A stretch of DNA of 64,000 bases. It comes from Eledone cirrhosa. Lineage: Eukaryota. Below are positions 2,366 to 40,992 of the stretch, one piece after another; the stretch's first letter is position 1, and every line of letters begins with the position of its first letter. The stretch is taken from assembly GCA_964016885.1 (NCBI GenBank), contig OZ024758.1:30814001-30878000 (forward strand), given 5' to 3'. Position numbers and translations under genes: made by a program. The notes under the pieces are model-generated. The model saw only the letters and a program-made list of their open reading frames with translations. It was not told where the DNA came from and searched no databases.

Positions 2366-2427
<62 letters not shown>

Positions 2428-2428
<1 letters not shown>

Positions 2429-9625: not shown

Positions 9626-9639
9626 AGATTTATATATAT

Positions 9640-13656: not shown

Positions 13657-14340
13657 TAAACGGAAAAAATGGAACGAAATTTCATTTCCCACTCTTAGTA
13701 CGGCTGTTACTTAAATATAAGTATGTACACGTACATACATATATGTATACAGACGTACAGTAGTATATATATATATATATATATACATACATGCACACAT
13801 ATATATATGTACGTATGGATTCACCGAACATTTATTATAATGCTCGGTGAGTTTGTAAACAAACATCCCGTATTAAGCCGTAGTGTCTAGCAACCACCGT
13901 TGCTCGTTTGTTCAACACTGACAAAGGAACGCTGTACTAGTTTCAAGCTTGTTAGCTATCGTCAGCAACGTATACCTTCCTGCCAGATAATTGAACGTCC
14001 GAAAGTATATACTTTCCGTATTAACGGCTGAGTAGCCCAATTTGCATATCGAGTGGGTTAATCGGCCGGGTGCACCGAAAACTATAAACGGAAAAAACGA
14101 AACGAAATTTCATTTCCCACTCTTAGTACGGCTGTTACTTAGTGTTGAACAAACGAGCAACGGTGGTTGCTAGACACTACGGCTTAATACGGGATGTTTG
14201 TTTACAAACACACCGAGCATTATAATAAATGTTTGGTGAATCCATACGTACATATATATATGTGTGCATGTATGTATATATATATACATACTACTGTACG
14301 TCTGTAAACATATATGTATGTACGTATACATACTTATATA
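13657..14340 (-). mobile_element. Non-autonomous HHR element (ACTAGT family): 428-bp unit plus 55-bp terminal redundancy plus inverted segment
   Basis: 13657-13712 is repeated at 14085-14140. 14141-14340 is the reverse complement of about 13715-13920. Confidence 0.8.
13929..13971 (-). ncRNA. Minimal type I hammerhead ribozyme
   Basis: ACGTTG-CTGACGA-TAGCT(AACA)AGCTT-GAAAC-TA-GTA/CAGCGT. Confidence 0.8.
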
Positions 14341-14549
14341 TATGTGTGTGTGTGTGTGAACAAAAATATGTATTGTTGCCCCAAAGCCCTGCTGACCTAT
14401 GTTACTATCGAAACACGTATGACAGCGATTGTGTAACAAATAAATCACGTAAATTATTACTTACCGACTTCTACTTCATTGTTACATTGTTATACCAATA
14501 CTCCTGTGTGCAGTAGAGTCGGTTGATTAACTAACACAAAATATACACA

Positions 14550-14603
<54 letters not shown>

Positions 14604-14647
14604 AAGTTAAATAAAAGTCAAATGATCAAAATTTAGCTTCGTTTATT

Positions 14648-14702
14648 ACTGCTATATATATTTCAGTGACAGCCATCTTTGGCTGTCACCTCTTCAGGCA
14701 GT
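14648..14702 (-). ncRNA. Type I hammerhead ribozyme
   Basis: ACTGC-CTGAAGA-GGTGACAGCCA(AAGA)TGGCTGTCACT-GAAAT-ATAT-ATA/GCAGT, then AATAAA; 11-bp stem II. Confidence 0.85.
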
Positions 14703-14812
14703 TTGAATTAGTATGGTGTAGACAAGTACATATGTTGTTTAGGTGTATGATATTGTCAATACTCTGATATGTCCAGTTTCTTGTTGGGTTGTTATTTCAA
14801 TGAGGAACTGGA

Positions 14813-14880
<68 letters not shown>

Positions 14881-15281
14881 ATATGGGTGAGTAGAATACT
14901 GCTGGTTGCACATGGATAACATGTTATAAAATGAGTCCCCCATCAGTGATTTACCAAACGATCATGGGTATTTCATCGCATTAAAAATCATATACCTCAC
15001 GTTGGAGCGATAATAACTAAAATAAGTTATTAGGACAAAAGAAACGCGTAAAGCGAGTGAGACAAGTAAACAACACAGGGGGAAGCTAACCGAAGATGGA
15101 AATAAACACAAGCAACATAGTTATTCTTTCAGCATAAGCTGTGTGAATATATGAGCGAGTCAAGAAAACAGACCTTTCGCTAGTGAATCCGGTATATATA
15201 TATATATATATATACGTTATTCCGGGTTGAATCGGAGGTAACCACAGTAAGTAAGGTACTCAATACATAGCAGAGTATAAC

Positions 15282-15405
15282 AGTTTTAATATAGATGAGA
15301 TTCTACAGGACTAGAACTGTTTCATTCATTTGAAATCATCAGGAATTCCTGATGATTTCAAATGAATGAAACAGTTCTAGTCCTGTAGAATCTCATCTAT
15401 ATTAA

Positions 15406-15409
<4 letters not shown>
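15282..15409. repeat. Perfect 128-bp palindrome centred beside a hammerhead core
   Basis: Centre GGAATTCC (15342-15349). Each strand reads CTGATGA-TTTCAAATGAAT-GAAAC-AGTTCTA-GTC. Confidence 0.9.
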
Positions 15410-15490
<81 letters not shown>

Positions 15491-15799
15491 GTTGCGACAG
15501 TAAACGGAAACCCAAAAAACGTGGAAGCGAAGAGGCAGTAGAAATGTTATTATTAGTTTCACGCTTACCAAACATCTCAATGAAAGAAATCTCTCAGAGA
15601 CGCAATATCATGTATTCAAATTAAATGAGAAAAAACTCTAATCCTGGGAATATAAACAAGATAGACGAAAACATTTTTTCTATTATTTTTCTATTATTGG
15701 AACCAGTAATAATTGCAGAATCCGCTACACTATTCGGGGGAGTATAATCCGTCAAGTTTAAGAGAAATGGAACAAGATATAATACATACTGTTTCCATA

Positions 15800-16439
15800 T
15801 CGTTATATATATCAACTCGAGGATGTCTGTGTGTCTGTGTACAACTTGGCATGCATAAGGCTTTCACAATTACCAACTGAATTTGACCAAATTCTCTGTG
15901 CACGTTGCGCAGGTCGCTAAGATTGTCACATCACAAATATTTTTCAAATCGACCCACGTTGAGCAACAAAAAATCGATATCGAAATTATCGGTAGGAAAA
16001 TTGATGTGAGGGAGATAAAAAACTTTATTGACAATCCTTATAAAGAAGGGAGATAACCTTTTCACCAACCATACACAGCAAAGGATGCTCTCAAAGAATA
16101 GATTTTCTCTTATTCTACTCTCATTGTTTTTTTGTTTGTATACAACTCTGCTTTCATTACAACTTTTTGTACTTTAGCAAAACTGCCTGTTTTTTTTACA
16201 GATTTGCAACGTGTATTGTCTTTAATCATTTGTATAACTACATCCTGTTCAGTGTTTTCCTTCATTATCAGCATAGTTTTATGTGTACAAAGATTGCACT
16301 AAATATTCGTTTGCATTAATTATTGAAGACTTCTGCTTATTTTGACAGGTTGGGGACAAATAATGTTCTTCTTTTACTTCCTAGCTGTATATTCTTAGCA
16401 TAATTTCAAACCCCGAGCAACGCCGGGTAAATCTGCTAG
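15800..16439 (+). mobile_element. Non-autonomous Helitron
   Basis: 5' A|TC start, 3' hairpin CCCGAGCAACGCCGGG followed by CTAG|T; longer relative of 47707-48102. Confidence 0.8.
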
Positions 16440-16934
16440 TATATAATAAAGATAGATATTTAAGTTTGAAATTACCTACTACTAGGTTTTATCGTATGAA
16501 TGAAACGACACCAGCAGTAGTTTGGTGTAACGTTTTGTAATAGGCATCAAAGGATCATGCGAATAATTTAGGAAGGTCGAAATTAATATTGTTTATCAAT
16601 TAATTAGTTATCTTCCTAGTTTCTTTCATGTATCTCTATTGATTTTTAATTTGTTGTCTGCTATTAATTAAGGTCAACTTTGTCTTTCATCCATTCATGG
16701 TCGATAAAAAAAAGTACCAGTTACGTACTGAGATCGATTCTTCTTCTGTGCCTCTTTCTCACTTCCATTCTCTCTCTGGAAGAAATCTACGGTATTTAGG
16801 CATGGAAAGGAGATAGGCTCCGTCAGCTTTTTAAAAACAATGCCCAAGAAACGCCGTATGTCCTTATGGCGGCCCTACCACTCCCCAGGATGTATGGGTT
16901 CATACCATAACATTAATTAAGCTTTTATAAATAA

Positions 16935-17120
16935 TTGTTTATACGTTTGGCACAAGGCCAGCAATTATTCCACTGTATTACTGGTACTTTATTTTATCGT
17001 CCCTGTAAGGATGAAAGGCAAAGTTAATCTCGGCGGGATTTGAACTCAGATCATAAAGGGAGGTAACTCTATGCTTCAAAGCATGACGTCCAACTCTCTA
17101 CCGATACTGCCAATCCACCG
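16935..17120 (-). mobile_element. tRNA-derived Nin-domain SINE
   Basis: Minus strand has A-box-like TGGCAG, B-box GAGTTCAAATCC and Nin-like GCCTTTCATCCTT..GATAAAAT. Confidence 0.75.
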
Positions 17121-17789
17121 TAAATAATGAAGATTTTGAGGAATTCCATTTATGATGATAGTTTTTCTCAGCTAAGGTTTTTTTTACTAGTTTCGTTTCG
17201 AATATTGATGTAATGGCTTCTTGTTACAAATGCATAGTAAACCGATGGAAGAGTGTTACATTTGATTCTGTCGTGAAGATTTATTGTCAAACTAAATGTT
17301 TAGTGAAAAAGATTAATTTCAAACGCGGTTGTGTCTTAAGCACATGTTTGAAAGAAAATCTACGTGTATGATTGTATATGCATCTCTATTTGTGTATGTA
17401 TATATACATTTCGGTGTATATAGACGTACGTATGTAAACTGTAGTTATATATGCATATGTGTGTAACTTTAGGCCTTGCTCACTGCAATCCAAATCTTTA
17501 TCTGAATATATTAGCTGATTATTCAATTAGGCGCTCAAAGGTAATTGTTTAAATTCACTCTGGTAGCAGTTTAACGTAGAGCTCTAATCACCGAAAATAT
17601 TTCTGTAGGGTATTGTTTACAATAGTCAGAATTTGAAATGAATGTGTATTCAAGCTACCCTGTCTATTACAACGAGGTTTCAGGCAAGAAATATGGTAAA
17701 TAATTCTTCAAATACCTATTAAAAAATACTCTTATCTCTCATAACAATTAAATGTGTTAAAATAATAAGAAATAAACGATTCCATGTAT

Positions 17790-18090
17790 TATTACAAAGT
17801 ACCAGTAATGCACTGGGTAATTGCTGACCTTGTGCCTAAAGTAGAAACAATTATTACAATGTCAATAGCAGTAAATTGGCAGAATCGGTAGAACGTCGGA
17901 CACTCTGCTTCATGGCATAGAGGTACGGCCCTTTACGTTCTGAGTTCAATTCCAGACGGGATTAGCTTTGCCTTTCATCCTTACGGGGTCGATAAAATGA
18001 TGTACCAGTCATGTACTGGGGTCGATTTAATCGACTTTTCCCTCCCCAAAAAATTTCTACCATTGAGCCTAAATCAGAAACCATTATTAG
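17790..18090 (+). mobile_element. Nin-domain SINE copies (3' fragment plus near-full copy)
   Basis: tggcagaatcggtag...gagttcaattcc...gcctttcatccttacggggtcgataaaatg. Confidence 0.75.
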
Positions 18091-19893
18091 AGAATGAAAT
18101 GGTCAACTATTTCTAAATGTTAATTGAAGAGATCCTAAGAGGCCCCAAACATGTCCAGAGTTGCCTTACGTACCTTGAAATAATTCAGATTATATTAGTC
18201 ATTGATTAATATTTATTGTTTTTCTTACCCCACAGTCATAACTTCCACTTATTTCAGTCAAACTGGGTCGTTTAATCCCTACTCATTTATAAATGGTGAC
18301 CGATGAGCTAAGCGTCCTTCACTGGTAAGAGCTTCATTTTCCTATAGTGAATCATAGAGCTGTAAAGATGATGATGAAACATATGTAATACATTTACAGC
18401 AGAAACTGATACCATCACGTTCATATCTACAATGTATGATTAGTTGTACTGGCTTCTTCAGCGTTCGGTTCCTTTCAAAGGGGCAGGCTACATACTCTTG
18501 ACACTTTAATAAATGATCAAAGATACTTTCGGCATAAAAAATGATAAAGTCGACATTTATATACTTTATTTAATGTGGCAAAGAATTTAATTAATTAAAA
18601 TTACACTCGTAATATAGAAAAAAATCATTACCTTAATGATTCATTCTGGTTAAGTGAGATAACCGAAGAATTTTAATGAATTTGAATTAAATATAAGAAG
18701 AAAGCAGCAGAAAATTAGTCTGATCTCTGACCGGTTTGAAATCTTTTAAGAAAACTATCACGAATTCATACAGCCCGCAGTAGGATAGACCGTTTGCTCT
18801 AAACTATTAAATTACATATTGATTATCTAAATTAACTAAATTATATGTTACTTAGCTAAAGTAAATTATGTAAATAAGGAAATAGGACCGTCAAATACAT
18901 AAATCTGAATATAGATATACACAGAACAAACACTAAGTAACCCCTGAATATCCTTATACATAAATAATACTCTCCGAAAACAAAGCCAATAATAAACAAA
19001 ACACCCAGTGGATATATATTGTCTTATCTTAGAATATAGTAATTCTGGTGTTCAAATTCTTTCTTTCTATGAATAACAACATTCAAGGTTCGGCAAAACT
19101 GATTCACCTACAAAAACGTTTCAGTGACTGTGTAACAAAAGCTCGATCTTTTAAGAATAAATCGACAGACAACTTATATAGTATATATATTTTTTCATAT
19201 AACATATATCGGCAACCTTTCATCTAGTCTAGATATTGATTCTGAAGTTTGGACTTAAATATTTTAAAGGATTAACTCCAGATCAAATCAGTCATGTTAA
19301 TCTGATATATTTTCGTTTCACAAACATCTTCGGAGGATTTTGTTTTTTCTGATTTGTATTTCGGAATCGGTTGCTATTTTAAGTGCTACAATACCTTATT
19401 TATTTATTTTTGCCTATGCTATTAGCCTATCATAATAGCAAGATAATTCGTTGTTTTTCTATTAAACTAAGACGTCTATTCGTCCTCACCAGTTCTTAGT
19501 ACAATTGCCTCCCAATAAGCTTCTCATGCAGGATATGTTAGATGGAATTAAAATTAATATGGATAGTATCTTCCAGTTTGTGTCAATAACGTAATGGATA
19601 ATTTGTATAAACATTTGATAAAACAACTGTATATTTTAGTTGTAAATACAGATTCATGGTATTTTTTCCTGATTTTGGTTTTCGTTAGATACACATTTCT
19701 CAATTAACTATGAATGTCTCGATTGCTTCTGATTTGGTTTTTATTTATGTCAAATTTAATTACATTTCTAGAAAATATACGCTTTCATCATATTGATACT
19801 TCTCACTTTGTTCTTTAATTATGTTAGGAAGAACGATATATGTTAAGAACATCGGAAAATCTGCCATTTCTATCCATTTTATTATTTTACATA

Positions 19894-21544
19894 GACACCA
19901 CTCAGTGGGCAAGGGCATATGCTAGTTTATTAAATAACTTGACACCACTCAGGGGGCAAGGGTATATGCTAGTTTATTAAATAACTTGACACCACTCAGT
20001 GGGCAAGGGTATATGCTAGTTTATTAAATAACTTGACACCACTCAGTGGGCAAGGGTATATGCTAGTTTATTAAATAACTTGACACAACTCAGTGGGCAA
20101 GGGTATATGCTAGTTTATTAAATAACTTGACACAACTCAGTGGGCAAGGGTATATGCTAGTTTATTAAATAACTTGACACCACTCAGGGGGCAAGGGTAT
20201 ATGCTAGTTTATTAAATGACTTGACACCACTTAGTGGGCAAGGGGATATGCTAGTTTATTAAATAACTTGACACAACTCAGTGGGCAAGGGTATATGCTA
20301 GTTTATTAAATAACTTGACACCACTCAGGGGGCAAGGGTATATGCTAGTTTATTAAATAACTTGACACCACTCAGTGGGCAAGGGTATATGCTAGTTTAT
20401 TAAATAACTTGACACCACTCAGTGGGCAAGGGTATATGCTAGTTTATTAAATAACTTGACACCACTCAGTGGGCAAGGGTATATGCTAGTTTATTAAATA
20501 ACTTGACACCACTCAGGGGGCAAGGGTATATGCTAGTTTATTAAATAACTTGACACCACTCAGTGGGCAAGGGTATATGCTAGTTTATTAAATAACTTGA
20601 CACCACTCAGTGGGCAAGGGTATATGCTAGTTTATTAAATAACTTGACACCACTCAGTGGGCAAGGGTATATGCTAGTTTATTAAATAACTTGACACCAC
20701 TCAGTGGGCAAGGGTATATGCTAGTTTATTAAATAACTTGACACCACTCAGGGGGCAAGGGTATATGCTAGTTTATTAAATAACTTGACACCACTAAGTG
20801 GGCAAGGGCATATGCTAGTTTATTAAATAACTTGACACCACTCAGTGGGCAAGGGTATATGCTAGTTTATTAAATAACTTGACACAACTCAGTGGGCAAG
20901 GGTATATGCTAGTTTATTAAATAACTTGACACCACTAAGTGGGCAAGGGCATATGCTAGTTTATTAAATGACTTGACACCACTAAGTGGGCAAGGGGATA
21001 TGCTAGTTTATTAAATAACTTGACACCACTAAGTGGGCAAGGGGATATGCTAGTTTATTAAATAACTTGACACAACTCAGTGGGCAAGGGTATATGCTAG
21101 TTTATTAAATAACTTGACACCACTCAGGGGGCAAGGGTATATGCTAGTTTATTAAATAACTTGACACCACTCAGTGGGCAAGGGTATATGCTAGTTTATT
21201 AAATAACTTGACACCACTCAGTGGGCAAGGGTATATGCTAGTTTATTAAATAACTTGACACCACTAAGTGGGCAAGGGTATATGCTAGTTTATTAAATGA
21301 CTTGACACCACTAAGTGGGCAAGGGTATATGCTAGTTTATTAAATAACTTGACACCACTCAGTGGGCAAGGGTATATGCTAGTTTATTAAATGACTTGAC
21401 ACCACTAAGTGGGCAAGGGCATATGCTAGTTTATTAAATGACTTGACACCATTTAGTGGGCAAGGGTATATGCTAGTTTATTAAATAACTTGACACCACT
21501 CAGTGGGCAAGGGCATATGCTAGTTTATTAAATGACTTGACACC
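19894..21544. repeat. Minisatellite, 47-bp unit, ~35 copies
   Basis: GACACCACTCAGTGGGCAAGGGTATATGCTAGTTTATTAAATAACTT in head-to-tail copies with no spacers. Confidence 0.95.
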
Positions 21545-22139
21545 AAAAAATTGGGTTTGAATCGAGCACCATAACACTTTTTAAGATACCCTTTTTTTTA
21601 TATAATGTTTAGAAAGTTTTAGTCAATGATAATGTGTCTCCGCGGCCCTTTCGGACTATTCTATTCTCTGTTACTATGGTATACCTCATAGTTTAGTAAT
21701 TTCTCCTGCACTGACCATCTTGTATATTAACTACCTGGTTACTATCAATTCTAAAAATACACACCCCCCCTGATAATAACAAACCTCATTCCTCATTAAT
21801 ATACATAAGAGTAATTCACACTCAACCAAAACATTTCCCATTAGATCTGGATTACCTCCACGAAGAGAGACCTTGGAAGCATTCTTCAATACTAACAAAT
21901 GTAGAAACAAGCTTCTTAACTTCTCTTCCACGAATTTCGTTCCTGAGCCCGTAAATGGAGCACGAGTACTGTGTTTTCTGAGGGTCATCTGGAGTTGTAA
22001 GTCCATTCTGACAACCCATGATAATATATCGTCCTTTGTCATTCTTACGCTGATAACATGCTGAAGTTGTGGAACAAAGGTGAGAAGATACCAAGTTCAA
22101 CTTTGTTCTCGATGTTCCTAACGCCACTCAACCCTTCTG

Positions 22140-22310
22140 ACAGTGGAGACTTCTGGTGTCCTCGGTACTAGGGCTACCTGAGCTGGCCAGCCGCAGGTGT
22201 GAACTCCGCGAGTCGGAGTGGCTTTTCCAGCGCAGCTACCTTTCCGTCCTCCGGAGGAACGCCTTCTCCATCCTGTCCGTCGGGGCTGTGGGGAGGCTCC
22301 ATCCTATAAC
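22140..22310 (+). mobile_element. CRE-clade non-LTR retrotransposon 3' fragment
   Basis: Translates ETSGVLGTRA...RESEWLFQR..LSVLRRNAFSILS, resembling the CRE REL-endonuclease C-terminal motif LFQRLSxAxxRGNA. Confidence 0.55.
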
Positions 22311-22637
22311 ATTCCATATTTAGGTATCCAGATTAATGGTTTTTATATACGCAGTATAGAAGTGTATCAGTAATTATATTCCTTACAATCTCTGCCTACT
22401 TGGGCTTTATGGTTTCACTCAAACATTACACTCACAGCACCTCAAAGGAGAGGGTGTCCTGCCACTCCTCATTTTGAAAGACTCTTTCAATGTTCGTGCA
22501 AGATAAGATACCAATAATATCGATTATTTACCCGCGGGTTAGATCAATATGTACTTTTCATTAAAATTCCCTATCTCCACTGAGTCTTAGAATTTTTAAA
22601 TAACAAACATATTTGAGACATTGATGTCACATGAGTC

Positions 22638-23168
22638 CACACACACACACACACACCGCCCACCATACACACCACACACACCACACACACCACACACACC
22701 ATACACACACCAAACACACACACACACAAACACCGCCCACCATACACACCACACACACCACACACACCACACACACCATACACACACCACACACACCATA
22801 CACACACCACACACACACCACACACACACACCACACACGCGCACATACACCACACCACACACACCACACCACACCACACACACCACACACCACACACCAC
22901 ACCACACACACCACACACACCACACACCACACACACACACAAACACACACCGCCCACCATACACACCACACACACCACACACACCATACACACACCACAC
23001 ACACACCATACACACCACACACACACCACACACACACCACACACACACACCACGCACACACACACACCACACACCACACCACACACACAACACCACACAA
23101 CACACCACACACACACCACACACATCAAATACACACACCACCCACACACACCACCCCCACAATACACA
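22638..23168. repeat. Complex (CA)n/CACCA low-complexity tract
   Basis: Direct inspection. Confidence 0.95.
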
Positions 23169-23270
23169 TATCTATATATATTATATGTGGGAGGTATGTA
23201 ATAATATCAATAATAATAACAACAACAACAACAATAATAACAATAATTTAAGCAAGTGGAGTATGTTCTA

Positions 23271-24472
23271 CTAGCACGTGTAGTGTGTATATTGATATTA
23301 TACACAAGTATATATACATGTAGATATTATATATCTGCTAGCATATGTAGTGTATATATTGATATTTTACACAAGTATATATACATGTAGATATTATATA
23401 TCTGCTGGCATGTGTAGTGTGTATATTGATATTATACACAGGTATATATACATGTAGATATTATATATCTGCTGGCATGTGTAGTGTGTATATTGATATT
23501 ATACACAGGTATATATACATGTAGATATTATATATCTGCTAGCATATGTAGTGTGTATATTGATATTATACGCAGGTATTTATACATGTAGATATTATAT
23601 ATCTGCTGGCATGTGTAGTGTGTATATTGATATTATACACAAGTATATATACATGTAGATATTATATATCTGCTAGCATGTGTAGTGTGTATATTGATAT
23701 TATACGCAGGTATATATACATGTAGATATTATATATATGCTAGCATGTGTAGTGTGTATATTGATATTATACGCAGGTATATATACATGTAGATATTATA
23801 TATATGCTAGCATGTGTAGTGTGTATATTGATATTATACGCTGGTATATATACATGTAGATATTATATATCTACTAGTACATGTAGTGTGTAATATTGAT
23901 ATTATACATAAGTATATATACATGTAGATATTATATATCTACTAGCTCGTGTAGTGTGTATATTGATATTATACACAGGTATATATATACATGTAGATAT
24001 TATATATCAGCTAGCACGTGTAGTGTGTATATTCATATTATACACAAGTATATATACATGTAGATATTATATATCTGCTAGCACGTGTAGTGTGTATATT
24101 GATATTATACGCAGGTATATATACATGTAGATATTATATATCAGCTAGCACGTGTAGTGTGTATATTGATATTATACGCAGGTATATATACATGTAGATA
24201 TTATATATCTACTAGCACGTGTAGTGTGTATATTGATATTATACGCAGGTATATATACATGTAGATATTATATATCTACTAGCACGTGTAGTGTGTAAAT
24301 TGATATTATACGCAGGTATATATACATGTAGATATTATATATCTACTAGCACGTGTAGTGTGTATATTGATATTATACGCAGGTATATATACATGTAGAT
24401 ATTATATATCTGCTGGCATGTGTAGTGTGTATATTGATATTATACACAAGTATATATATACATGTAGATATG
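23271..24472. repeat. Minisatellite, 67-bp unit, ~18 copies
   Basis: CTAGCACGTGTAGTGTGTATATTGATATTATACACAAGTATATATACATGTAGATATTATATATCTG. Confidence 0.95.
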
Positions 24473-24907
24473 ATACATCAAATAAAATCGTAATTGACAA
24501 TATACACAGGAATTGAACAAAGTCTGTTACACTGTCTTCTGTAATCAATAACGTAATCCATGATACATTAAAAAAAGACGATATTATATATAAACTGCAT
24601 TTGGAGAAAATTAGTGACGGAAATATATGCGATTATATGTGTTATAAAATAACGGCCATTAGCCGGAAGTGATGACATTTGACAATTTTAAAGAAGTGAA
24701 TAAATTATATTTAATCAATAGCCATGAAATTTAGTAGATAAATTATGTAATATTCATTAATTATTTATTCAAAGTAATCCAACTTATTTTACAAGCGGGG
24801 TAAACAAAAATATTCTGGATGCAGTCCCGCACTCCTTACTCTATTATAGTTAAGATAGAGAGACCAGCGTGTGTTGACTGATCGATGTTGCTTGGAGGTT
24901 TTATGCA

Positions 24908-25505
24908 CCAGTTGTAGACTTGGTCGTTTTATACTCCAGTTGTAGACTTGGTCGTTTTATACTCCAGTGGTAGACTTGGTCGTTTTATACTCCAGTGGTA
25001 GACTTGGTCGTTTTATACTCCAGTGGTAGGCTTGGTCGTTTTATACTCTAGTGGTAGACTTGGTCGTTTTATACTCCAGTGGTAGACTTGGTCGTTTTAT
25101 ACTCCAGTGGTAGACTTGGTCGTTTTATACTCCAGTGGTAGACTTGGTCATTTTATACTCCAGTGGTAGGCTTGGTCGTTTTATACTCCAGTGGTAGACT
25201 TGGTCGTTTTATACTCCAGTTGTAGACTTGGTCGTTTTATACTCCAGTGGTAGACTTGGTCATTTTATACTCCAGTGGTAGGCTTGGTCGTTTTATACTC
25301 CAGTGGTAGACTTGATCGTTTTATACTCCAGTTGTAGACTTGGTCGTTTTATACTCCAGTGGTAGACTTGGTCGTTTTATACTCCAGTGGTATACTTGGT
25401 CGTTTTATACTCCAGTGGTAGACTTGGTCGTTTTATACTCCAGTGGTAGACTTGGTCGTTTTATACTCCAGTGGTAGACTTGGTCGTTTTATACTCCAGT
25501 GGTAG
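24908..25505. repeat. Minisatellite, 28-bp unit, ~21 copies
   Basis: CCAGTGGTAGACTTGGTCGTTTTATACT. Confidence 0.95.
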
Positions 25506-25759
25506 AGAAAGGACGTCAGCAAATAGAGCTGAAATGCGAAATAGAAAGTGGTATTTCTGCAGAGTTATTCTGATCCCAGTAGAAGTATTAGGGAGAGTGG
25601 CTACAGGTTTCTTGAATATCATAGAAAAGTTAATTTCCTGACTCTACAGAAGGTTTGCTTGCTACAGAGATACTTAAAGGTGCAGCAGATAACTAACAAT
25701 TCAATTCAATTACTGGCTGACCGAGAAATATCAAAATACTGAGTAAAGAGAAGATAATA

Positions 25760-26070
25760 AGAATTGTTTCTAACATTGGCACGAGGCTAGCAATTTGGGA
25801 GAAGAAGTAAATCTATTATATCGACCTCAGTACTTAACTCGTACTGTATTTTATCGACTCCGGATGGATGAAACGCAAAGTCAATCTCGGCGAGATTTGA
25901 AATCAAAACGTTGAAATTCGTAACTAAATGCCGAAAAACATTTTGTCCGACACTCTACTGATACAGCCAATTCACCTCGAGAAAATAATAATAATAATAA
26001 TAATTGTTTCTACTTTTGGCACAAGGCCAGCAATTACCCAGTGCATTACTGGTACTTTATTTTATCGACT
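25760..26070 (-). mobile_element. Nin-domain SINE copies
   Basis: ttatcgac..ggatgaaa..caaagtc..cggcgagatttgaa pattern and the conserved tail aattgtttctacttttggcacaaggccagc. Confidence 0.7.
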
Positions 26071-26312
26071 AATGAAATCAAGGTCGTCCCGATTGTCATA
26101 GGCGCACTAGGTACTATCTCAAAGAGTTTCCAAGGATGGTTAAAGAAGATTAGTCCAGCCCCGCTTTTCGGAACACTTAAAAAAGCATGCTTGCTGGGAA
26201 CAGCAAGAACCCTCCGATACGTCCTGAATGTCTGAGGCTGCAGGTAGCGCCTTGTTATTCATTTCAACAAACTTTCCAGTTAAATAACATCATTGGCTGA
26301 GACTCAAAGAAC

Positions 26313-26342
<30 letters not shown>
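26071..26342 (+). mobile_element. R4/Dong-like (restriction-like endonuclease) non-LTR 3' end with (AAT)n tail
   Basis: EIKVVPIVIGALGTISK...LKKACLLGTARTLRYVLN*, then a short UTR and AAT repeats. Confidence 0.75.
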
Positions 26343-26343
<1 letters not shown>

Positions 26344-26579
26344 TTTTTTTGCAAATTATCGATCACTCATATATGATTTATTATCACTCTGTTGTGAATA
26401 TGATTTTAAACAGATAACGTTCACATGTATAAAGCAAGTGATATACTTGTAACTGTGTAAAGTAGGTGACGTGAACAATCTGGTGTGTACCTATCAATGT
26501 ATGTAGTGAGTTTATCTGCTGCAGGTGTTGGCAACACACATGGAAACCAAACACAAATAATAATAATGATGATAATAAT

Positions 26580-26912
26580 AAGGATTTCTTCGATAGGCAC
26601 AAGGACAGCAATTTGGAGGGAGGGAAAAGTCGATTAACCGACCCCACTGTATTACTGGTACTTTATTATATCGACCCCGTAAAGATGAAAAGCAAAGCTT
26701 AACTTCGGCAGGATTTAAAGTAATAATTGTTTCTACTTTTGGCACAAGGCCAGCAATTATCCAGTGCGTTACTGGGACTTTATTTTATCGACCCCGTAAG
26801 GATGAAAGGCAAAGTTAACCTCGGCGGGATTTGAACTCAGAATGGCAAGGGCCGTAACTCTATGTCAAAGCATGGCGTCCGACCTTCTACCGATACTGCC
26901 AATCCACCGCCC
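26580..26912 (-). mobile_element. Two adjacent Nin-domain SINEs
   Basis: Copy 26720-26912 is near full length, with tRNA-like head and Nin core. Confidence 0.8.
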
Positions 26913-27329
26913 ATTTAAGGTAATAATGATCATTTTTATTTGTCACGAGGGCCCAATTTATTGGGAACAATACAAGGACAAAAACAATATAAAGTGGGGT
27001 TTACATTAAGTAAAGGAAAGGGACCATCACTAACGAGAAAACAAAAGAAATAACACTAATAAAAATTGTACAAAATATACCCAATGATAGAAAACACTAA
27101 CACATGTCAACAAGAATAAGTTCTCCAATGGTGGGGACGGCACATTAGGGTAATTTCAAGGTGACACCCTAAAGAAAACCCCGGATTTCTCTGTACCTCA
27201 TGGGCATTGAACATACGCTCTCCCGGTTTCTTTCATCATCCTGCTTAATTATAATCAGAAGTAGAAGCAGCAGGTGCTTTCAGCGTCCTGAATACCATAG
27301 ATTGCTGTATTGCTATCCAGGGGCGTTTG

Positions 27330-27630
27330 AAGGCGGGTAGCTTTGTGGTATTCGGCTCACAACCGTGAGGTCATGAGTTCGAGTCCCAGCGGCGCGCTGT
27401 GTCCTTGAGCAAAACACTTTATTTCACATTGCTCCAGTCCACTCAGCTGGCAAAAATGAGTTGTACTTGTAATTCGAAAGACTAGCCTTGTCACATTCTG
27501 TGTCACACTGAATCTCCCTGAGAACTATGTTAAGGGTATGCGTTCTGTGGAATGCTCAGCCACTTGCACGTTAATTTCACAAGCAGACTATTCCGTTGAT
27601 CGAATCAACTAGAACACTCCTCGTTGTAAC
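27330..27630 (+). mobile_element. tRNA-derived SINE with CORE/V-like central domain
   Basis: B-box GAGTTCGAGTCCC followed by TGTGTCCTTGAGCAAAACACTTTATTTCACATTGCTCCAGTCCACTCAGC. Confidence 0.7.
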
Positions 27631-27714
27631 AACTGTGGTTCGTAGAATACAAATAGCCGGAAAAATATGGATACTGAGAGGCATTTAGTTTGGCACCCAA
27701 CTGACTCTGCCAGT

Positions 27715-28465
27715 CTATCACTATATATCGATATTAATTTATCACTACATATCGATATTAATCTATCACTATATATCGATATTAATTTATCACTACATAT
27801 CGATATTAATTTATCACTTATATATCGATATTAATTTATCACTACATATCGATATTAATCTATCACTACATATCGATATTAATTTATCACTTATATATCG
27901 ATATTAATTTATCACTACATATCGATATTAATTTATCACTACATATCGATATTAATTTATCACTACATAGCGATATTAATTTATCACTACATATCGATAT
28001 TAATTTATCACTACATATCGATATTAATTTATCACTACATATCGATATTAATTTATCACTACATATCGATATTAATTTATCACTACATATCGATATTAAT
28101 TTATCACTACATATCGATATTAATTTATCACTACATATCGATATTAATTTATCACTTATATATCGATATTCATTTTTCATTACATATCGATATTAATTTA
28201 TCACTACATATCGATATTAATCTATCACTACATATCGATATTAATTTATCACTACATATCGATATTAATTTATCACTACATATCGATATTAATTTATCAC
28301 TACATATCGATATTAATTTTTCATTACATATCGATATTAATTTATCACTACATATCGATATTAATTTATCACTACATATCGATATTAATTTATCACTACA
28401 TATCGATATTAATTTATCACTACATATCGATATTAATTTTTCATTACATATCGATATTAATTTAT
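27715..28465. repeat. Minisatellite, 24-bp unit, ~31 copies
   Basis: ATCACTACATATCGATATTAATTT; source of the spurious SDKLISIC ORF. Confidence 0.95.
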
Positions 28466-29080
28466 GGGGGTGATTGTGTGTGTGTGGGGGGGGGGGGGTA
28501 ACTGTGTGTGTGTTGGGGGGCTGTGTGTGTGTGTGGGGGGGTGACTTTGTGTGTGCGGGGTGGGTGACTGGGGGGGGGTGACTGTGTGGGGGGGTGACTG
28601 TGTGCGTGTGTGCGGCGTGACTGTGTGTGTGGGTGGGTGACTGTGTGTGTGTGGGGGGGGGACTGTGTGTGTGTGGGGGGGGGGATGTGTGTGTGGGTGA
28701 CTGTGTGTGTGTGTGAGGGGGGATATGTGAGTGGGTGACTCTATGTGGGTATGCGTATGTGTGTGTATGTCTATGTGTGTATGTCTCTGCGTGTCTCTAA
28801 GTGTGTGCGTGTGACTCTGTGCGCATGTGTGTGTCTGTTTGTGTGTATGTCTTTGTGTACTTGTGTTTATGTGTGTGCGATTCTGTGTGTGCGTGTGTGT
28901 GTGCATGTGCATGTGTATGTGTGTGCATGTATGTGTGTGCATGTGTATGTGTATGTGTGCGTGTATGTATGTGTGTGTGCATGTGTGTGTGTGTGCATGT
29001 GTGTGTGTGCATGTGTGTTTGTGTGTGCATGTGTGTGTGTCTTGGTGCGGTGGTGTGTGGTTGTCAGCATGTGTATGTAT
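28466..29080. repeat. G/GT-rich low-complexity tract
   Basis: (GT)n and G-runs. Confidence 0.9.
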
Positions 29081-29239
29081 ATACTACGTTGATTAAGTCA
29101 GGCAGTTTGCCAATCTCCTTATTTAAAATCTGCCACGAGAAACTGTTCTCATAAAATTGTGGCCATATTTAAATTTAGAAAGTAAATATTAAGTCCATGA
29201 CCTAAGTTGGTTTTCATGCAACTGTCAATGTCACAGCAC

Positions 29240-31300
29240 ATTAGTTACCTCACACTACCTTAGTTACGTCACATCACCTTAGTTACGTCACATTACCTTA
29301 GTTACGTCACATCATCTTAGTTACGTCATGCAACCTTAGTTAAGTCACACCACCTTAGTTACGTCACACCACCTTAGTTACCTCACACTACCTTAGTTAC
29401 GCCACACTACCTTAGTTACGTCACACCACCTTAGTTACGTCACACTACCTTAGTTACCTCACACTACCTTAGTTACGTCACATCACCTTAGTTACGTCAC
29501 ACTACCTTAGTTACGCCACACTATCTTAGTTACGTCATGCTACCTTAGTTACGTCACACTACGTTAGTTACGTCACACTACGTTAGTTATGCCTCACTAC
29601 CTATTTACGTCACACTACCTTAGTTACATAACATTACCTTAGTTACGTCACACTACCTCAGCTATGTCACACTATCTTAGTTACGTCACATCACCTTAGT
29701 TACGTCACACAACCTTAGTTACGTCACACTGTGTTAGTTACGCCACACAACCTTAGTTACGTCACACTACCTTAGCTACGTCAAACTAGCTTAGTTACGT
29801 CACACTACTTTAGTTACATCACACTACCTTAGTTACGTCACATCGCCTTGGCTACGTCACACTACATTAGTTACATCACACCACCTTAGTTACATCACAC
29901 TACCTTAGTTACGTCACATTACCTTAGTTACGTCACACCACCCTAGTTACGCCACATCACCTTGGTTACGTCACATCACCTTAGTTACGTTACACCACCT
30001 TAGTTACGTCACATTGCCTTAGTTACGTCAGATTGCCTTAGTTACCTCACATCGCCTTAGTTACGTCACATTACCTTAGTTACGTCACATTACCTTAGTC
30101 ACCTCACATCACCTTAGTTACGACACATTACCTTAGTTACCTCACACCACCTTAGTTACGTCACATTACCTTAGTTACGTCACATCATCTTAGTTACGTC
30201 ATGCAACCTTAGTTAAGTCACACCACCTTAGTTACGTCACACCACCTTAGTTACCTCACACTACCTTAGTTACGCCACACTACCTTAGTTACGTCACACC
30301 ACCTTAGTTACGTCACACTACCTTAGTTACCTCACACTACCTTAGTTACGTCACATCACCTTAGTTACGTCACACTACCTTAGTTACGCCACACTATCTT
30401 AGTTACGTCATGCTACCTTAGTTACGTCACACTACGTTAGTTACGTCACACTACGTTAGTTATGCCTCACTACCTATTTACGTCACACTACCTTAGTTAC
30501 ATAACATTACCTTAGTTACGTCACACTACCTCAGCTATGTCACACTATCTTAGTTACGTCACATCACCTTAGTTACGTCACACAACCTTAGTTACGTCAC
30601 ACTGTGTTAGTTACGCCACACAACCTTAGTTACGTCACACTACCTTAGCTACGTCAAACTAGCTTAGTTACGTCACACTACTTTAGTTACATCACACTAC
30701 CTTAGTTACGTCACATCGCCTTGGCTACGTCACACTACATTAGTTACATCACACCACCTTAGTTACATCACACTACCTTAGTTACGTCACATTACCTTAG
30801 TTACGTCACACCACCCTAGTTACGCCACATCACCTTGGTTACGTCACATCACCTTAGTTACGTTACACCACCTTAGTTACGTCACATTGCCTTAGTTACG
30901 TCAGATTGCCTTAGTTACCTCACATCGCCTTAGTTACGTCACATTACCTTAGTTACGTCACATTACCTTAGTCACCTCACATCACCTTAGTTACGACACA
31001 TTACCTTAGTTACCTCACACCACCTTAGTTACGTCACATTACCTTAGTTACCTCACACCACCTTAGTTACGTCACATTACCTTAGTTACCTCACACCACC
31101 TTAGTTACGTCACATTACCTTAGTTACCTCACACCACCTTAGTTACGTCACATTACCTTAGTTACGTCACCTGACCTTAGTTACGTCACATTACCTTAGT
31201 TACGTCACATGACCTTAGTTACGTCACATTACCTTAGTTACGTCACATGACCTTAGTTACGTCACATGACCTTAGTTACGTCACATTACCTTAGTTACGT
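29240..31300. repeat. Minisatellite, 19-bp unit (~108 copies) with an 873-bp higher-order duplication
   Basis: Unit CCTTAGTTACGTCACACTA. The variant string ATCATCTTAGTTACGTCATGCAACC occurs at 29311 and 30184. Confidence 0.95.
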
Positions 31301-31347
31301 CTTCCTACACTATATAGCTGACGAAAGGGATTCATATCGGCAATGCG

Positions 31348-32238
31348 CGTGTATGTGTGTATATATGTGTGTATATATATGTGTATGTGTGTATGTGTAT
31401 GTGTATGTGTGTATATATGTGTGTATATATATGTGTATGTGTGTATGTGTATGTGTATGTGTGTATATATGTGTGTATATATATGTGTATGTGTGTATGT
31501 GTATGTGTATCTGTGTATATATGTGTGTATATATATGTGTGTATGTGTATGTGTGTATATGAGTATGTGTATATGTGTGTGTATGTGTGTATATATGTGT
31601 ATATGTGTATGTGTGTGTATATGTGAGTATACGTGTGTATATGTATGTGTATATGTGTGTATATGTGTGTATATGTGTGTGTATGTGTGTGTATATGTAT
31701 GTGTATATGTGTGTATATGTGTGTATATGTGTGTATATGTGTTCGTATATCTGTGTGTATATAGGTGTGTATATGTGTATATGTACGTGTATGTGTGCAT
31801 ATGTGTGTATATGTGTGCATATGTGTGTGTATATGTGTGTATATGTATGTCTATATGTGTGCATATGCGTGTGTATATGTGTGCACATGTGTGTGTGTAT
31901 ATGTGTGTATATGTATGTTTATATGTGTGCATATGTGTGTGTATATGTGTGTATATATATGTCTATATGTGTGCATATGTATGTGTATATGTGTGCATAT
32001 GTGTGTGTATATGTGTGCATATGTGTGTGTATATGTGTGCATATGTATGTCTATATGTGTGCATATGTGTGTGTATATGTGTGCACATGTGTGTGTATAT
32101 GTGTGCATATGTGTGTATATGTGTGCATATGTGTGTATATGTATGTGTATATGTGTGTATATGTATGTCTATATGTGTGCATATATGTGTGTATATGTGT
32201 GCACATGTGTGTGTGTATATGTGTGCATATATATGTGT
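31348..32238. repeat. (ATATGTGTGT)-type compound microsatellite
   Basis: Direct inspection. Confidence 0.95.
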
Positions 32239-32874
32239 AAATTCCAGGCTGATATTCTCCATCGGTGTGCATCCTTCCCTAGATCAATGGCCACTGGTAT
32301 GTGCTAAAACTTATAATGAAATATCGAGTTATTGTGATATTGAGGTTTAATTGATACCTGACAACAACAACAATCGGTTTGATTGGTTGAGAATCCATTG
32401 AGACGACGGATTTGGAATGTATTCATTTCTCTTTCTTAATACGAACACATCTGAAATGTGACATGATGACACTTGTCACTGGCAGATATGTCTATGGAAA
32501 GGTACAGTGCTTTTATGTAATACTAGATTAAATGTAATGATCGAACGAGAGAGATAAAGCAACTATTATTGACTTTTGTCATAGTTTTTAGACATCTATT
32601 GGTGATAGCAAAAGGAAGGGGAACAAGCACTGAATATTATCTATAACTACTGTAAATTCTGACTTGGAAATACCATAGAGAAAATGACAGGTAGAAACTC
32701 GTTTGAGGATGTGTTGTTGCTGTTGCTGTTGTTGTTGTTGTGGTGGTGGTGTTTTGTTGGTGTTGTTGTCGTTTAGCCCCAACTCAGCTCTGATTGATAA
32801 AAGACTTTCCTGTAACATTAAAACAGAGTAACTAGGATCACATTATAAATATAATCTGAGTTTTTCGAATATTA

Positions 32875-33055
32875 ATAATTGTTTCTAGTTTAGGCACAAG
32901 GCCAGCAATTACCCAGTGCATTACTGGTACTTTATTTTATCGACCCCGTGAGGATGAGAGGCAAAGTCAACCTCGGTGGGATTTGAACTCAGATCGTAAA
33001 GGGACGTAACTATGCTGGAAAGCATGGCGTTCGACCCTCTACCGATACTGCCAAT
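32875..33055 (-). mobile_element. Nin-domain SINE
   Basis: Near-full copy, homologous to 51475-51655. Confidence 0.8.
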
Positions 33056-33242
33056 TCACCATGTGAACAGAACTGCAGACACATGCCAACACAAGATCAA
33101 GAATGAAGTGTTCATTCTACTGACATGGCTATAAAATTGAAGCTTGTTTGCATAATTGCAAACGAATCGAATGTTATTATTAATATTCGAAAAACTCAGA
33201 TTACATTTATTGTATTCAGTCATGTAGAGCGAAATTTTCTTT

Positions 33243-33311
<69 letters not shown>

Positions 33312-33454
33312 GTGTTAAACAATATTCAATGATTATGTCAAAGAATGAGTTTTACAGTAGATTGGAAGCACTCAACGGTAAAAAAAAATTTTTCTGGAGT
33401 TATTAATATTAAAATATAAGTATTAATAAAATAGATGTTCTTTTAATCAATTAC

Positions 33455-33507
33455 ATTTTATTATACATATTTCGGATGTACAACAGTACGTCCTCATCAG
33501 ACAAAAT
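33455..33507 (-). ncRNA. Type I hammerhead ribozyme in a TA-flanked fold-back element (33307-33650)
   Basis: ATTTTGT-CTGATGA-GGACGTAC(TGTT)GTACATCC-GAAAT-ATGT-ATA/ATAAAAT. The inverted arm 33573-33650 starts inside stem II. Confidence 0.8.
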
Positions 33508-34233
33508 ATAATGATACATGACATACCCTGAGATGTTAAATGGTTAAGATTTAATCAAGGTAGTCTACCTGGTGTACATCCGAAATATGTATAATAAAAT
33601 GTAATTGATCAAAAGAACATCTATTTTATTAATACTTATATTTTAATATATATATATATATATAGGCTGCCATTTCTAGCGGCTAGTTCTGTTCATACCA
33701 ACGGTCACTGCCTCGTACACACGCGCTACAGGTCAGTTCCTATAATTACCTTTAGTAGTGGGGAAAATATCATCTTGAGCAGATGCTGATGACCCAACAG
33801 CTGAGTTTCAACCCACTTATAGTGAGTTTCTACAAGTGCGATTTAGTTATGAGGTAGGTTTATCATTTTAATTTATCCTTTTAATTATTCATTTTCTCCT
33901 ACACCTCTCTTAGCTCATATTCTCCTCACGCAGGTGGTTAAAATCCTGTAAATGAAAACACTCTTCTGTGTTTTTCCTCTCTATATTGTATATATGTATA
34001 TATATATATAAATGTAAGTATGTATGTATACGTACATACATATATGTATACAGACGTACAGTAGTATGTATATATATACACACATGCACATATATATATA
34101 TATGCACGAATCGGTTTACCGAACATTTATTATAATGCTCGGTTTGTTTGTTTGTAAACAAATAAACAGCCCGAATTACGCCGTACAGTGTTTAGGCAAC
34201 CACGTCACCTTTCCGTTCAACACTGACACAGGA

Positions 34234-34276
34234 ACGATGTACTAGTTTCAAGCTTATTAGCTATCGTCAGCATCGT
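34234..34276 (-). ncRNA. Minimal type I hammerhead ribozyme
   Basis: ACGATG-CTGACGA-TAGCT(AATA)AGCTT-GAAAC-TA-GTA/CATCGT; perfect 6-bp stem I. Confidence 0.85.
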
Positions 34277-34612
34277 ACACTTTCCTGCCAGATGGTTGAA
34301 CGTCTGAAAGTATATACTTTCCTTATGCATATTAACGGCTGAGCAGCATGTGCATGTATGTATATATATACATACTACTGTACGTCTGTATATATATATA
34401 TATATGTATGTACGTATACATACATACTTACATCTAAGTAAGTGCCGTACTAAGATTGAGAAATGAAATTTCGTTTCATACTATTCCATTTATCGTTTTC
34501 GGTGTGCCCGGCCGACTGAACTCACTCGATATGCAAATTAGGCTGCTCAGCCGTTAATATGCATAAGGAAGGTATATACTTTCAGACGTTCAACCATCTG
34601 GCAGGAAGGTGT

Positions 34613-34655
34613 ACGATGCTGACGATGGCTAACAGGCTTGAAACTAGTACATCGT
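34613..34655 (+). ncRNA. Minimal type I hammerhead ribozyme
   Basis: ACGATG-CTGACGA-TGGCT(AACA)GGCTT-GAAAC-TA-GTA/CATCGT. Confidence 0.8.
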
Positions 34656-35819
34656 TCCTGTGTCAGTGTTGAACGGAAAGGTGACGTGGTTGCCTAAACA
34701 CTGTACGGCGTAATTCGGGCTGTTTGTTTGTTTACAAACAAACACACCGAGCATTATAATAAATGTTCGGTAAACCGATACGTGCATATATATATATATG
34801 TATGTATATATATATACATGCTACTGTACGTCTGTATACATATATGTATGTACGTATACATACATACACACTTACATTTAAGTAACTGCCGTACTAAGAG
34901 TGAGAAATGAGATTTCGTTTCATTCTATTCCATATATATATATATACAGTATATATATATATTTATGCATGTGTGTGCAAAAAGTAACCGGAAACAACAA
35001 TACAATGCTTAACATAGTAGGGAGATAGTCTTTACGTTTCAGAAGATAGATTGAGAAATAAAAGAAAAAGCACAATTATATTCAGCTAGCCATTTGTATA
35101 TCTAAAAAAAAATGAACAATCGTCCCCAACCCTCAAGCGTGAAACTAATACCAACACTGTTCGTAACTGCACTCCTTGTTATTGTTTTTGCATGTATGTC
35201 TGACTATATCTCTCCATGCCTGTGGCTTCAATTGTTTCTTTATGTCGTGTAAGTTAGTAGTTTGTAACAAAAGAAAGTGGTGCCCTAGCATGGCTGCAGT
35301 GAAACGACTAAAATCAGTAAAAGAATAAAATGTACATAATATATAAGTACGTATGTTATCTCTTTCTCTTAATTTCGAGTATTTTTTTTGACCGGCCACC
35401 TTCCTGGTGGCAAGGTTGTAAAAGAAGTCATCCCTTGAATCGCAAGAATGTTTTGCTGGATACCCGATCGCGCGGTTAAACCACTGGGAGTGAAGGACCC
35501 CTAGCCTTTGTCAGGGCATTCTTCTTGGAGAAGGCAACTCAGGAAACTGTGATAACTCCAATATAAAACCTGCGGCTCAGTAGTTACCGAGGATGTTGAT
35601 CTTTTCTTCTTTTCGGGTTATAGCTACTGTCGCTCAGAGAGTGGGATTGGCTCAGTGCACAGTCTTTCCTCACTTATATACATTTAAAAAAATCTTAACG
35701 CACAGGCACTGCACGATAGCATTAATTGATACTTATTAATAATGTTATATCGAGCAATGGCCATACTCGATAACGAGGGGGCAGCCATCATCATGTATGT
35801 ATGGATGGATGTATGCATT

Positions 35820-39994: not shown

Positions 39995-40992
<998 letters not shown>

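Follow-up and report, generated by a model that had tools for sequence, protein, structure and literature searches.

A 64-kb window of the Eledone cirrhosa genome (GCA_964016885.1, contig OZ024758.1, 30,814,001-30,878,000; positions below are those of the window) contains a short hammerhead-bearing unit at three loci, which raises the question of what kind of element this is and from what RNA it is copied. The unit is 428-444 bp long with a GC content of 0.38-0.39 and is free of ORFs, the longest frames over the wrapped unit being 40-55 aa and partly of low complexity. A preliminary description considered it a candidate for a non-autonomous element replicating through a circular or multimeric RNA. 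The sequence comparisons described here suggest that it is likely a parasite copied by the enzymes of Penelope-like elements (PLEs) from a circular or multi-unit RNA.

The arrangement of the copies was largely as described before: two exceed one unit by unequal amounts, each with an inverted arm, and a third, partial copy lies near 2428. The main body of copy A (13655..14141, minus strand) consists of a 428-bp unit plus 59 nt. Its long RNA-sense 3' end, at about 13655-13658, enters a (TA)n target (13631..13658), and similar runs lie beside A's arm, at both ends of B and at C. A tail of about 57-59 nt between the short and the long 3' end (13655..13713, minus) is repeated at 14083..14141 (minus) as a direct repeat with a spacing of 428 and 57/59 identical positions. 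This second tail copy is the terminal redundancy of A, and the unit is joined to itself at 14082/14083. The inverted, 5'-truncated arm (14141..14345, plus; 205 nt) corresponds to 13919->13709, is identical to the main body at 198 of 205 positions, terminates at the short 3' end and does not include the hammerhead. Copy B has a main body at 34346..34937 (plus) of a 444-bp unit and about 146 nt, a long 3' end at about 34932-34937 that enters (TA)n, and an inverted, 5'-truncated arm of 339 nt (34009..34347, minus) that corresponds to 34542->34880, is 325/335 identical to the main body and also terminates at the short 3' end. The two copies differ by about 9% at aligned positions. Copy C (2420..2777, minus) is 5'-truncated to less than one unit, carries neither tail nor arm and passes from the short 3' end into (TA)n; it extends as far as the junction at which A and B are self-joined. 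The earlier unit length of 446 for B is one reading among several, with three anchors in the tail giving 444 and two in the AT-rich part giving 446 and 440. The earlier end coordinates hold to within the few TA letters that are common to element and target. This AT-rich, self-complementary part of the unit (13714..13811, minus) terminates in a short hairpin; the 5' end at which A's main body begins and the short 3' end both fall in its loop.

All five segments in the window stop at one of two sites, RNA-sense 3' ends about 57 nt apart. The long end is used by the two main bodies and the short end by the two arms and copy C, the tail being present on the former and missing from the latter. The 5' ends are variable. 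Circular permutation, which had been anticipated, was not what was found: the 3' ends are fixed at two sites and only the 5' ends vary. Each of the five 3' ends continues into TA repeats, a count that should be read against a background of 8.8% of the window lying within 10 nt of a (TA)n run and against the TA-like ends of the element itself, which blur the boundary.

This insertion anatomy matches the published PLE signature, which comprises a partial tandem, an adjacent inverted 5'-truncated copy, an optional tail and a bias to (TA)n (PMC8557442). In the PLE reaction both strands of an AT-rich target are cut and extended, and two internal starts of reverse transcription (RT) define the tail (PMC11167929). 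The adjacent inverted 5'-truncated copy is present at two of the three loci. As in PLE insertions, those of the Hydra clade especially (PMC8557442; PMC11167929), the partial tandem and the inverted copy are combined with a hammerhead in the repeat, an optional tail between two fixed ends and a (TA)n target that lacks a clear target-site duplication. Unlike PLEs, the unit has no RT/GIY-YIG ORF, measures about 430 bp rather than kilobases and has a tail of about 57 nt, whereas PLE tails in the literature are usually 30-40 nt. The varying length of the terminal redundancy (59 vs about 146 nt) is unlike an LTR. No RT and GIY-YIG ORF was found between the repeats, where the unit runs into itself. 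An upstream RT ORF, linkage to which the preliminary description had named as evidence against its proposal, was looked for and is absent at A and B, and with no ORF attached to the copies the element can be called non-autonomous, as proposed. The claim of a template that is circular or longer than one unit also stands, with template jumping as a further route to the same product, in view of the self-joined unit in A and B and the family-wide presence of the junction in reads. Overall, it is very probable that the unit is a PLE-mobilised, non-autonomous element.

According to public reads the family is large and has both the self-to-self junction and the fixed end. The comparison covered unit positions 13812-14141 in the read sets X1, which may be the window's own source sample, X21 and X4; small shares under other organism labels were left out, X4 excepted, and summed contig depth was not taken as copy number. 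Matches comprised 7,855 contigs in X1 and 45,455 reads in X21, and in X4, which carries another organism label, 18 contigs covered 30/30 bins. The wrap position 14083 is spanned by 3,688 reads in X21, and in 55 contigs of X1 the element stops at 14083 and TA-rich sequence follows. Strand inversions account for 12 of the 15 joints listed (37 in total) and occur at varied places from 13856 to 14059; two of the 12 (13988 and 13989) fall on an AATT site and are possible chimeras. Read ends of X21 at 14039, 14042, 14105/14106 and 14109 were rejected as element ends since they coincide with AATT sites, and were treated as artefacts of the RAD library. A joint 14141->13812 was likewise discarded as evidence for multimers, being the normal order within one unit.

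Four hammerheads are predicted on the three insertions: in A (13929..13971, minus; cleavage predicted after GUA at 13935, with 280 nt from there to the long 3' end), in B (34613..34655, plus; predicted cut after 34649), in B's arm (34234..34276, minus, opposite to the main-body ribozyme) and in C (2613..2655, minus, where A-C replaces one pair of helix II). All four share the core, stem III and a stem I of 6 bp, stem III is the palindrome ACTAGT that had been reported, and 99% of cells are paired over 25 pairs. A strict scan that demanded the 6-bp stem I gave 11 motifs in the window and 0-1 in each of 30 block shuffles. In A and C stem I reads ACGTTG/CAGCGT; B and its arm share ACGATG/CATCGT. 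Both pairings are as described previously, but since B and its arm belong to a single insertion, the paired change counts as one event, and on four rows the covariation is not significant, with 75/500 shuffles reaching the same level. In the reads, catalytic-core variants among the 40 listed of 135 affect only the variable N7 position (13961). The stem I partners have matched frequencies in X21 (65% at 13932; 55%+10% at 13968) and roughly matched ones in X1 (54% vs 41%), both sets being unphased. A conserved core in a large, diverged family, together with pair-keeping variation in stem I, indicates that cleavage probably matters.

The hammerheads had been labelled minimal, and this label had to be dropped. 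The predicted fold is a canonical type I hammerhead with a helix II of 4 bp on a U.U base, a helix I of 6 bp with a predicted closing helix and a helix III of 2 bp. Type I topology and palindromic positions 15.2-16.2 with loop 3 are shared with the minimal hammerheads of metazoan PLE pseudo-LTRs (PMC4209133). Unlike the unit, these have a helix II of 7-8 bp, a helix I of 4-5 bp, a bulge before helix II and G10.1-C11.1; the helix lengths and G10.1-C11.1 of that class were not found in the window motifs. For minimal PLE hammerheads, dimeric cleavage and a circular template for RT beyond one unit have been proposed (PMC4209133). Dimeric cleavage at the present loci, as invoked in the preliminary description, does not agree with their structure. 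Counted from the long end, two same-strand ribozymes require 745 nt or more, and A has 487 and B about 590; none of the three copies carries such a pair, and therefore none can release unit-length RNA. With its U.U base, helix II resembles that of the axolotl HHR_Amex2, which cleaves weakly, and eight of nine Xenopus retrozyme dimers failed to cleave in vitro; both observations weigh against a template cut out by the ribozyme. Of 190 Rfam matches to the whole window, 150 were listed, and neither these nor two local scans included a hammerhead family; apart from a viral UTR model, what was listed consists of microRNA-like models placed on TA repeats, and every match is under the gathering score. 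The exact family pattern had no match in viral or metagenome contigs, and a relaxed core pattern matched metagenome contigs 28 times; these matches were dismissed as chance, none having a stem I of at least 4 bp or a BLAST match to the unit.

In view of the above, the main question is which RNA served as template. We give about an even chance to a non-autonomous element whose template is a circular RNA, cut by the ribozyme and re-ligated, that a PLE RT/GIY-YIG protein copies in trans. A source locus with at least two ribozymes, outside the set of copies in the window, would be transcribed, after which the ribozymes would excise unit-length RNA and a host ligase would circularise it, thereby restoring the genomic order of the sequence. 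The PLE protein, for which the (TA)n-targeting Hydra clade is the most plausible source, would cut both strands of a TA microsatellite and prime RT internally at two positions, which lie 3' of the cut site by about 223 and 280 nt. The cDNA from the far site would pass the ribozyme and its own start and reach 1.1-1.3 units, and that from the near site, made on the other strand, would halt early and become the inverted arm. The main template is not a linear monomer left by cleavage, since all four ribozymes in the window are intact across the cut site and the depth in X1 has no step there. The unit circle is predicted to fold well (z -7.9 and -6.4, 40 shuffles), also without the AT-rich part (z -4.7). 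A good fold is predicted for the antisense strand as well (z -3.8); this counts against a circle, as does the finding of neither a multi-unit array nor a locus with two same-strand ribozymes in the window.

The same PLE-mobilised element could instead be copied from an uncleaved linear multimer transcribed from a tandem array, or as monomers joined by RT template jumps, with the ribozyme inherited from a PLE pseudo-LTR and acting elsewhere in the cycle. This is a reasonable though less probable option, and the DNA anatomy is identical under both models. In the one PLE that was reconstituted, ribozyme mutants left insertion unchanged, and unprocessed RNA was the dominant substrate of this anole enzyme (PMC11167929), which speaks for a multimer, as does the weak U.U base of helix II. 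The redundant segments of A and B point in different directions. Those of A differ at 2/59 positions, no more than its arm does (7/205), which is what a single template predicts. The redundant tails of B differ at 5/64 positions compared with 10/335 for its arm (Fisher p=0.07), and at position 14134 they hold different alleles, each of which segregates in the family; these differences hint at two templates, as a multimer would allow. Against a multimer stand the conservation of the core and of stem I pairing, with the importance of cleavage that this suggests, and the window, which showed no multi-unit array. Retrozymes shown to form circRNAs (PMC7229834) match the unit in size and in type of ribozyme, which also agrees better with a circle.

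Explanations in which the unit is not an independent PLE-mobilised element are harder to reconcile with the data. The copies could be 5'-truncated relics, or solo pseudo-LTRs, of an autonomous PLE with its ORF upstream in full-length copies. The anatomy is of the PLE type, and most PLE insertions are truncated with one terminal repeat kept. Yet A and B, diverged as they are, both join to themselves where the ORF would be expected, C reaches the same junction, and position 14083 is spanned family-wide in the reads. The loose ends examined, the 14 listed of 451, consist of subfamily variants of the unit, TA runs and AATT artefacts rather than ORF-like sequence. With reading frames as short as those given above, and with PLE fragments in the 64-kb window that show no homology to the unit (nhmmer), an origin as relics appears improbable. 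Still more improbable is a DNA-level repeat (foldback, MITE-like or dispersed satellite) or a LINE-moved SINE in which hammerhead and inversions are incidental. Long inverted repeats lie beside A and B, copy C adjoins LINE RT/APE fragments, and (TA)n runs are common in the window. Arm lengths vary, however, as do the inversion joints in the reads, C has no arm, and truncation is polar, affecting the RNA-sense 5' side only; the window together with X1 already indicates fixed 3' ends. The arm here duplicates the 3' end, which a LINE-type 5' inversion is not known to do. The unit has no similarity to LINE fragments of the window, and its ribozyme core is conserved.

The kind of element is already known: animal non-LTR retrozymes, proposed to be PLE derivatives, are in print. 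The unit resembles them (PMC7229834; bioRxiv 10.64898/2026.07.22.740005) in being non-coding, 150-450 bp long and below 50% GC, in having a canonical type I hammerhead whose helix III is short and palindromic, in a circle predicted to be highly self-paired and in co-occurrence with PLEs; the basal U.U of helix II is shared with HHR_Amex2. It differs in forming dispersed insertions of 0.8-1.3 units with inverted arms and a tail instead of head-to-tail arrays, although dispersed monomers are counted in retrozyme families (bioRxiv 10.64898/2026.07.22.740005). It further differs from these circRNA-forming elements in being known here from DNA, with no homologous PLE pseudo-LTR within the 64-kb window. 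Non-autonomous Chlamys PLEs such as MRC1 (PMC8557442) are likewise ORF-less, with pseudo-LTRs and head-to-tail insertions made by PLE machinery. Those are algal, for the most part have no canonical hammerhead, and have 3' sequence in common with an autonomous family, unlike the unit, which has no such partner in the window.

Mobilisation of animal retrozymes by PLEs has been argued from co-occurrence and the phylogeny of terminal repeats (PMC7229834; bioRxiv 10.64898/2026.07.22.740005). Here, insertions of a retrozyme-type unit bear the mechanistic PLE signature, which ties such RNA directly to PLE machinery. The main text of the latter source does not use the word "tail" and has "inverted" in a reference only, "inverted" is absent from the former, and no title or abstract listed in searches of the literature set out such an anatomy for an animal retrozyme. 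In so short an element with a high copy number, the redundant segments of young insertions can distinguish a circular template from a multimer or template jump by DNA alone.

A more specific and rather doubtful proposal is that the retrozyme circle is the direct substrate of a Hydra-clade PLE RT-endonuclease, with two fixed starts, one per target strand, and no shared terminal sequence. The starts would lie 223 and 280 nt downstream of the re-ligated cut, giving rolling-circle bodies and inverted arms, and the helper would be recruited by structural mimicry. If true, this would offer a 430-nt natural model for the origin of PLE pseudo-LTRs, tails and inversions. The Hydra clade is a candidate helper class in view of its endonuclease fragments in the window, which serve as context here. 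A GIY-YIG fragment at 60548..61372 (plus) has the Hydra-clade motifs CxCX5C, CxxC and CxH, a second, Hydra-like one lies at 9212..9892 (minus; Pfam GIY-YIG E=3e-4, under the curated cut-off), and a third, also Hydra-like, at 39935..40564 (plus).

The sequence comparisons indicate that the element would work like an animal non-LTR retrozyme and insert like a Penelope-like element (PLE). It has the predicted hammerhead, the unit size and the lack of coding sequence of retrozymes, its longest ORFs being 40-55 aa. Mobilisation of retrozymes by PLEs has been proposed (PMC7229834) and is supported by co-occurrence and phylogeny (bioRxiv 10.64898/2026.07.22.740005). Non-autonomous PLEs have been described (PMC8557442), and a circular template was proposed for PLE copies of more than unit length (PMC4209133). 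In view of these proposals, the circular or multimeric RNA suggested in the preliminary description is a model already in print. The new contribution of this family is evidence, at the level of its insertions, for PLE mobilisation of a retrozyme-type unit; such evidence was not found in the literature searched, nor by term search of bioRxiv 10.64898/2026.07.22.740005 and PMC7229834, where supplements may show similar structures.

The host is a eukaryote, most likely an animal, with DNA rich in AT and in microsatellites. The three loci recognized earlier, here copies A, B and C, were recovered, with redundancy and inverted arms in A and B. The main body of copy A (13655-14141), the segment exceeding one unit, contains a 59-nt direct repeat at a spacing of 428, and its inverted arm follows at 14141-14345. 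In copy B a main body with a redundancy of about 146 nt (34346-34937) adjoins an arm at 34009-34347, and copy C lies at 2420-2777. The unit of 446 proposed for B is one of two readings from anchors within the AT-rich part, the other being 440, but three anchors in the tail, the stretch between the two 3' ends described below, give a period of 444. Over aligned positions, A is 90.6% identical to the B unit and 94.1% to C, and in both A and B the arm is about 97% identical to its own main body. In the ribozyme sense, the 3' ends of all five segments occupy only two positions, separated by about 57 nt: the main body of A and that of B end at a long site, which lies 280-288 nt 3' of the predicted cut, and both arms and copy C end at a short site. 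All five run into TA repeats; for comparison, 8.8% of the window is no more than 10 nt from a TA run. Random circular permutation is ruled out, as the 3' ends are fixed at two sites and only the 5' ends vary. None of the loci has two ribozymes on the same strand, which requires, measured from the long end, 745 nt or more; these loci alone therefore cannot release a unit-length RNA, and a source locus would have to lie elsewhere.

Four hammerheads occur at the three loci, and their stems I and III have the sequences reported before. A strict scan found 11 hammerhead motifs in the window and at most one in any of 30 block shuffles; a relaxed core pattern had 28 matches in metagenomes, none with a stem I of at least 4 bp. 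No Rfam hammerhead was among the matches listed. The predicted fold has a helix I of 6 bp followed by a bulge and a closing helix, a helix II of 4 bp on a U.U mismatch, and a helix III of 2 bp with a palindromic UA loop. It is thus not the minimal hammerhead first assumed but the canonical metazoan type I, which differs from the minimal PLE motif (architectures defined in PMC4209133). The U.U mismatch recalls the axolotl ribozyme HHR_Amex2, whose monomer is described as cleaving weakly and whose dimer as cleaving better. The paired change noted in stem I is present (U.G versus A-U), but it is a single double change and is not significant on the four window rows (75 of 500 shuffles). Read frequencies, which are unphased, support the pairing: position 13932 varies in 65% and its partner 13968 in 55%+10% of reads from X21, a RAD-seq run of the same species label from another study, and the match is looser in run X1, possibly the source of the window itself, with 54% and 20%+21%. 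Among 40 listed of 135 read variants, N7 alone lies in the catalytic core.

The anatomy of the three insertions is, as judged from sequence, the PLE signature, because it combines a partial tandem, an adjacent inverted 5'-truncated copy, an optional tail and a (TA)n bias, all described for PLE insertions (PMC8557442; PMC8969392). The tail has been explained as the sequence separating two internal start sites of RT, and both target strands were shown to be cut and extended (PMC11167929). The window contains three GIY-YIG fragments. The one at 60548-61372 has the CxCX5C, CxxC and CxH motifs given for the Hydra clade, whose members are described as nearly always inserting at (TA)n, and those at 9212-9892 and 39935-40564 have part of these motifs. 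The first fragment resembles eukaryotic clusters of the Atlas, and in some of these 31% of the members have GIY-YIG. When the unit was compared with the rest of the 64-kb window by a sensitive profile search, no homology emerged; the PLE fragments therefore point to a candidate class of helper and to no particular family.

Stretch 13812-14141 was compared with four public runs, which tests the long 3' end, the short one being at the stretch edge. It was matched by 7,855 contigs of X1, 45,455 raw reads of X21 and 18 contigs of X4, a run of another organism label, which covered 30/30 bins; X20 gave 0 contigs. Pieces of the element are also listed in runs X4-X20, with 16 other organism labels and shares of 0.04-0.28. 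At 14083, which corresponds to the long 3' end, 55 X1 contigs depart from the element and continue into TA-rich sequence, and X1 shows no depth step at the predicted cut site. Position 14083, where the unit joins itself in A, is bridged by 3,688 X21 reads, 95% of which carry the B and C letter, and by two X4 contigs. Strand inversions make up 12 of the 15 listed joints (37 in all); seven of the 12 have one side at 14129-14141, a number that the reference edge possibly inflates, and two are at an AATT site. The short 3' end (13700-13716) and the 5' end of the A main body (14126-14141) lie on the two halves of a small hairpin, which may be favoured for breakage or as a start site of RT; the edge of the compared stretch may also account for the clustering of joints there.

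The ORF-free unit, its self-junction, the fixed ends, the inversions and the target together argue that reverse transcription crossed the ribozyme and its own start. The template would then be circular, or an uncut multimer, or a set of monomers joined by jumps. We favour a circular RNA, with roughly an even chance of being correct, because the catalytic core is conserved, because retrozymes of matching size and ribozyme type have been shown to form circRNAs (PMC7229834), because the unit folds well as a predicted circle (z -7.9 and -6.4, or -4.7 when the AT-rich part is removed), and because the redundancy of A fits one template (differences 2/59 versus 7/205). Several points count against a circle. 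The antisense strand is predicted to fold well too (z -3.8), eight of nine Xenopus dimers did not cleave (bioRxiv 10.64898/2026.07.22.740005), and the main substrate of the anole PLE was uncut RNA (PMC11167929). Moreover, the B tails differ at 5/64 positions compared with 10/335 for the B arm (p=0.07), one of the five being an allele that segregates in the family according to the reads. A multimeric template is a weaker but real contender. That the unit is a truncated autonomous PLE is improbable, none of the 14 loose ends listed, out of a total of 451, carrying ORF-like sequence, and a DNA-level or LINE-driven origin of copies with this anatomy seems more improbable still.

The window has further repeats. 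An element at 3262-4165 has the same anatomy, with a 593-bp period, a 193-nt direct redundancy (99.5%), an inverted arm at 4050-4165 and TA runs on both sides; scans found no hammerhead in it. At 11328-12397 a partial tandem of 529-bp period with TA flanks and an inverted arm (12269-12397) has its own hammerhead-like motif on the minus strand (12093-12024). The Hydra-like PLE endonuclease fragment at 59542-63090 has a 1,023-nt inverted arm of 99.6% identity, indicating a very young insertion, and a relaxed scan found no hammerhead there. Further hammerhead-like motifs lie at 856-800, 1073-1012, 1327-1383, 6752-6696, 7674-7613, 14703-14647, 15343-15393 / 15348-15298, 33506-33456, 41182-41116 and 43600-43639. 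Many have an AT-rich palindromic stem III, several have a U.U at the helix II base, some form inverted pairs, and in 10/11 a TA run follows the cut within about 155 nt. The TA run of copy C adjoins rearranged pieces of a LINE whose fragments at 1440-2363 and 43773-45692 encode APE and RT (Pfam PF14529 and PF00078). The 5' end of copy C adjoins a fragment of a repeat of about 190 bp, many copies of which are dispersed through the window (2773-2838, 16926-17119, 26722-26909, 32870-33060, 38684-38870, 51474-51654 and 55681-55856). A tandem array with a 94-bp period and about 95% identity occupies 19878-21545.
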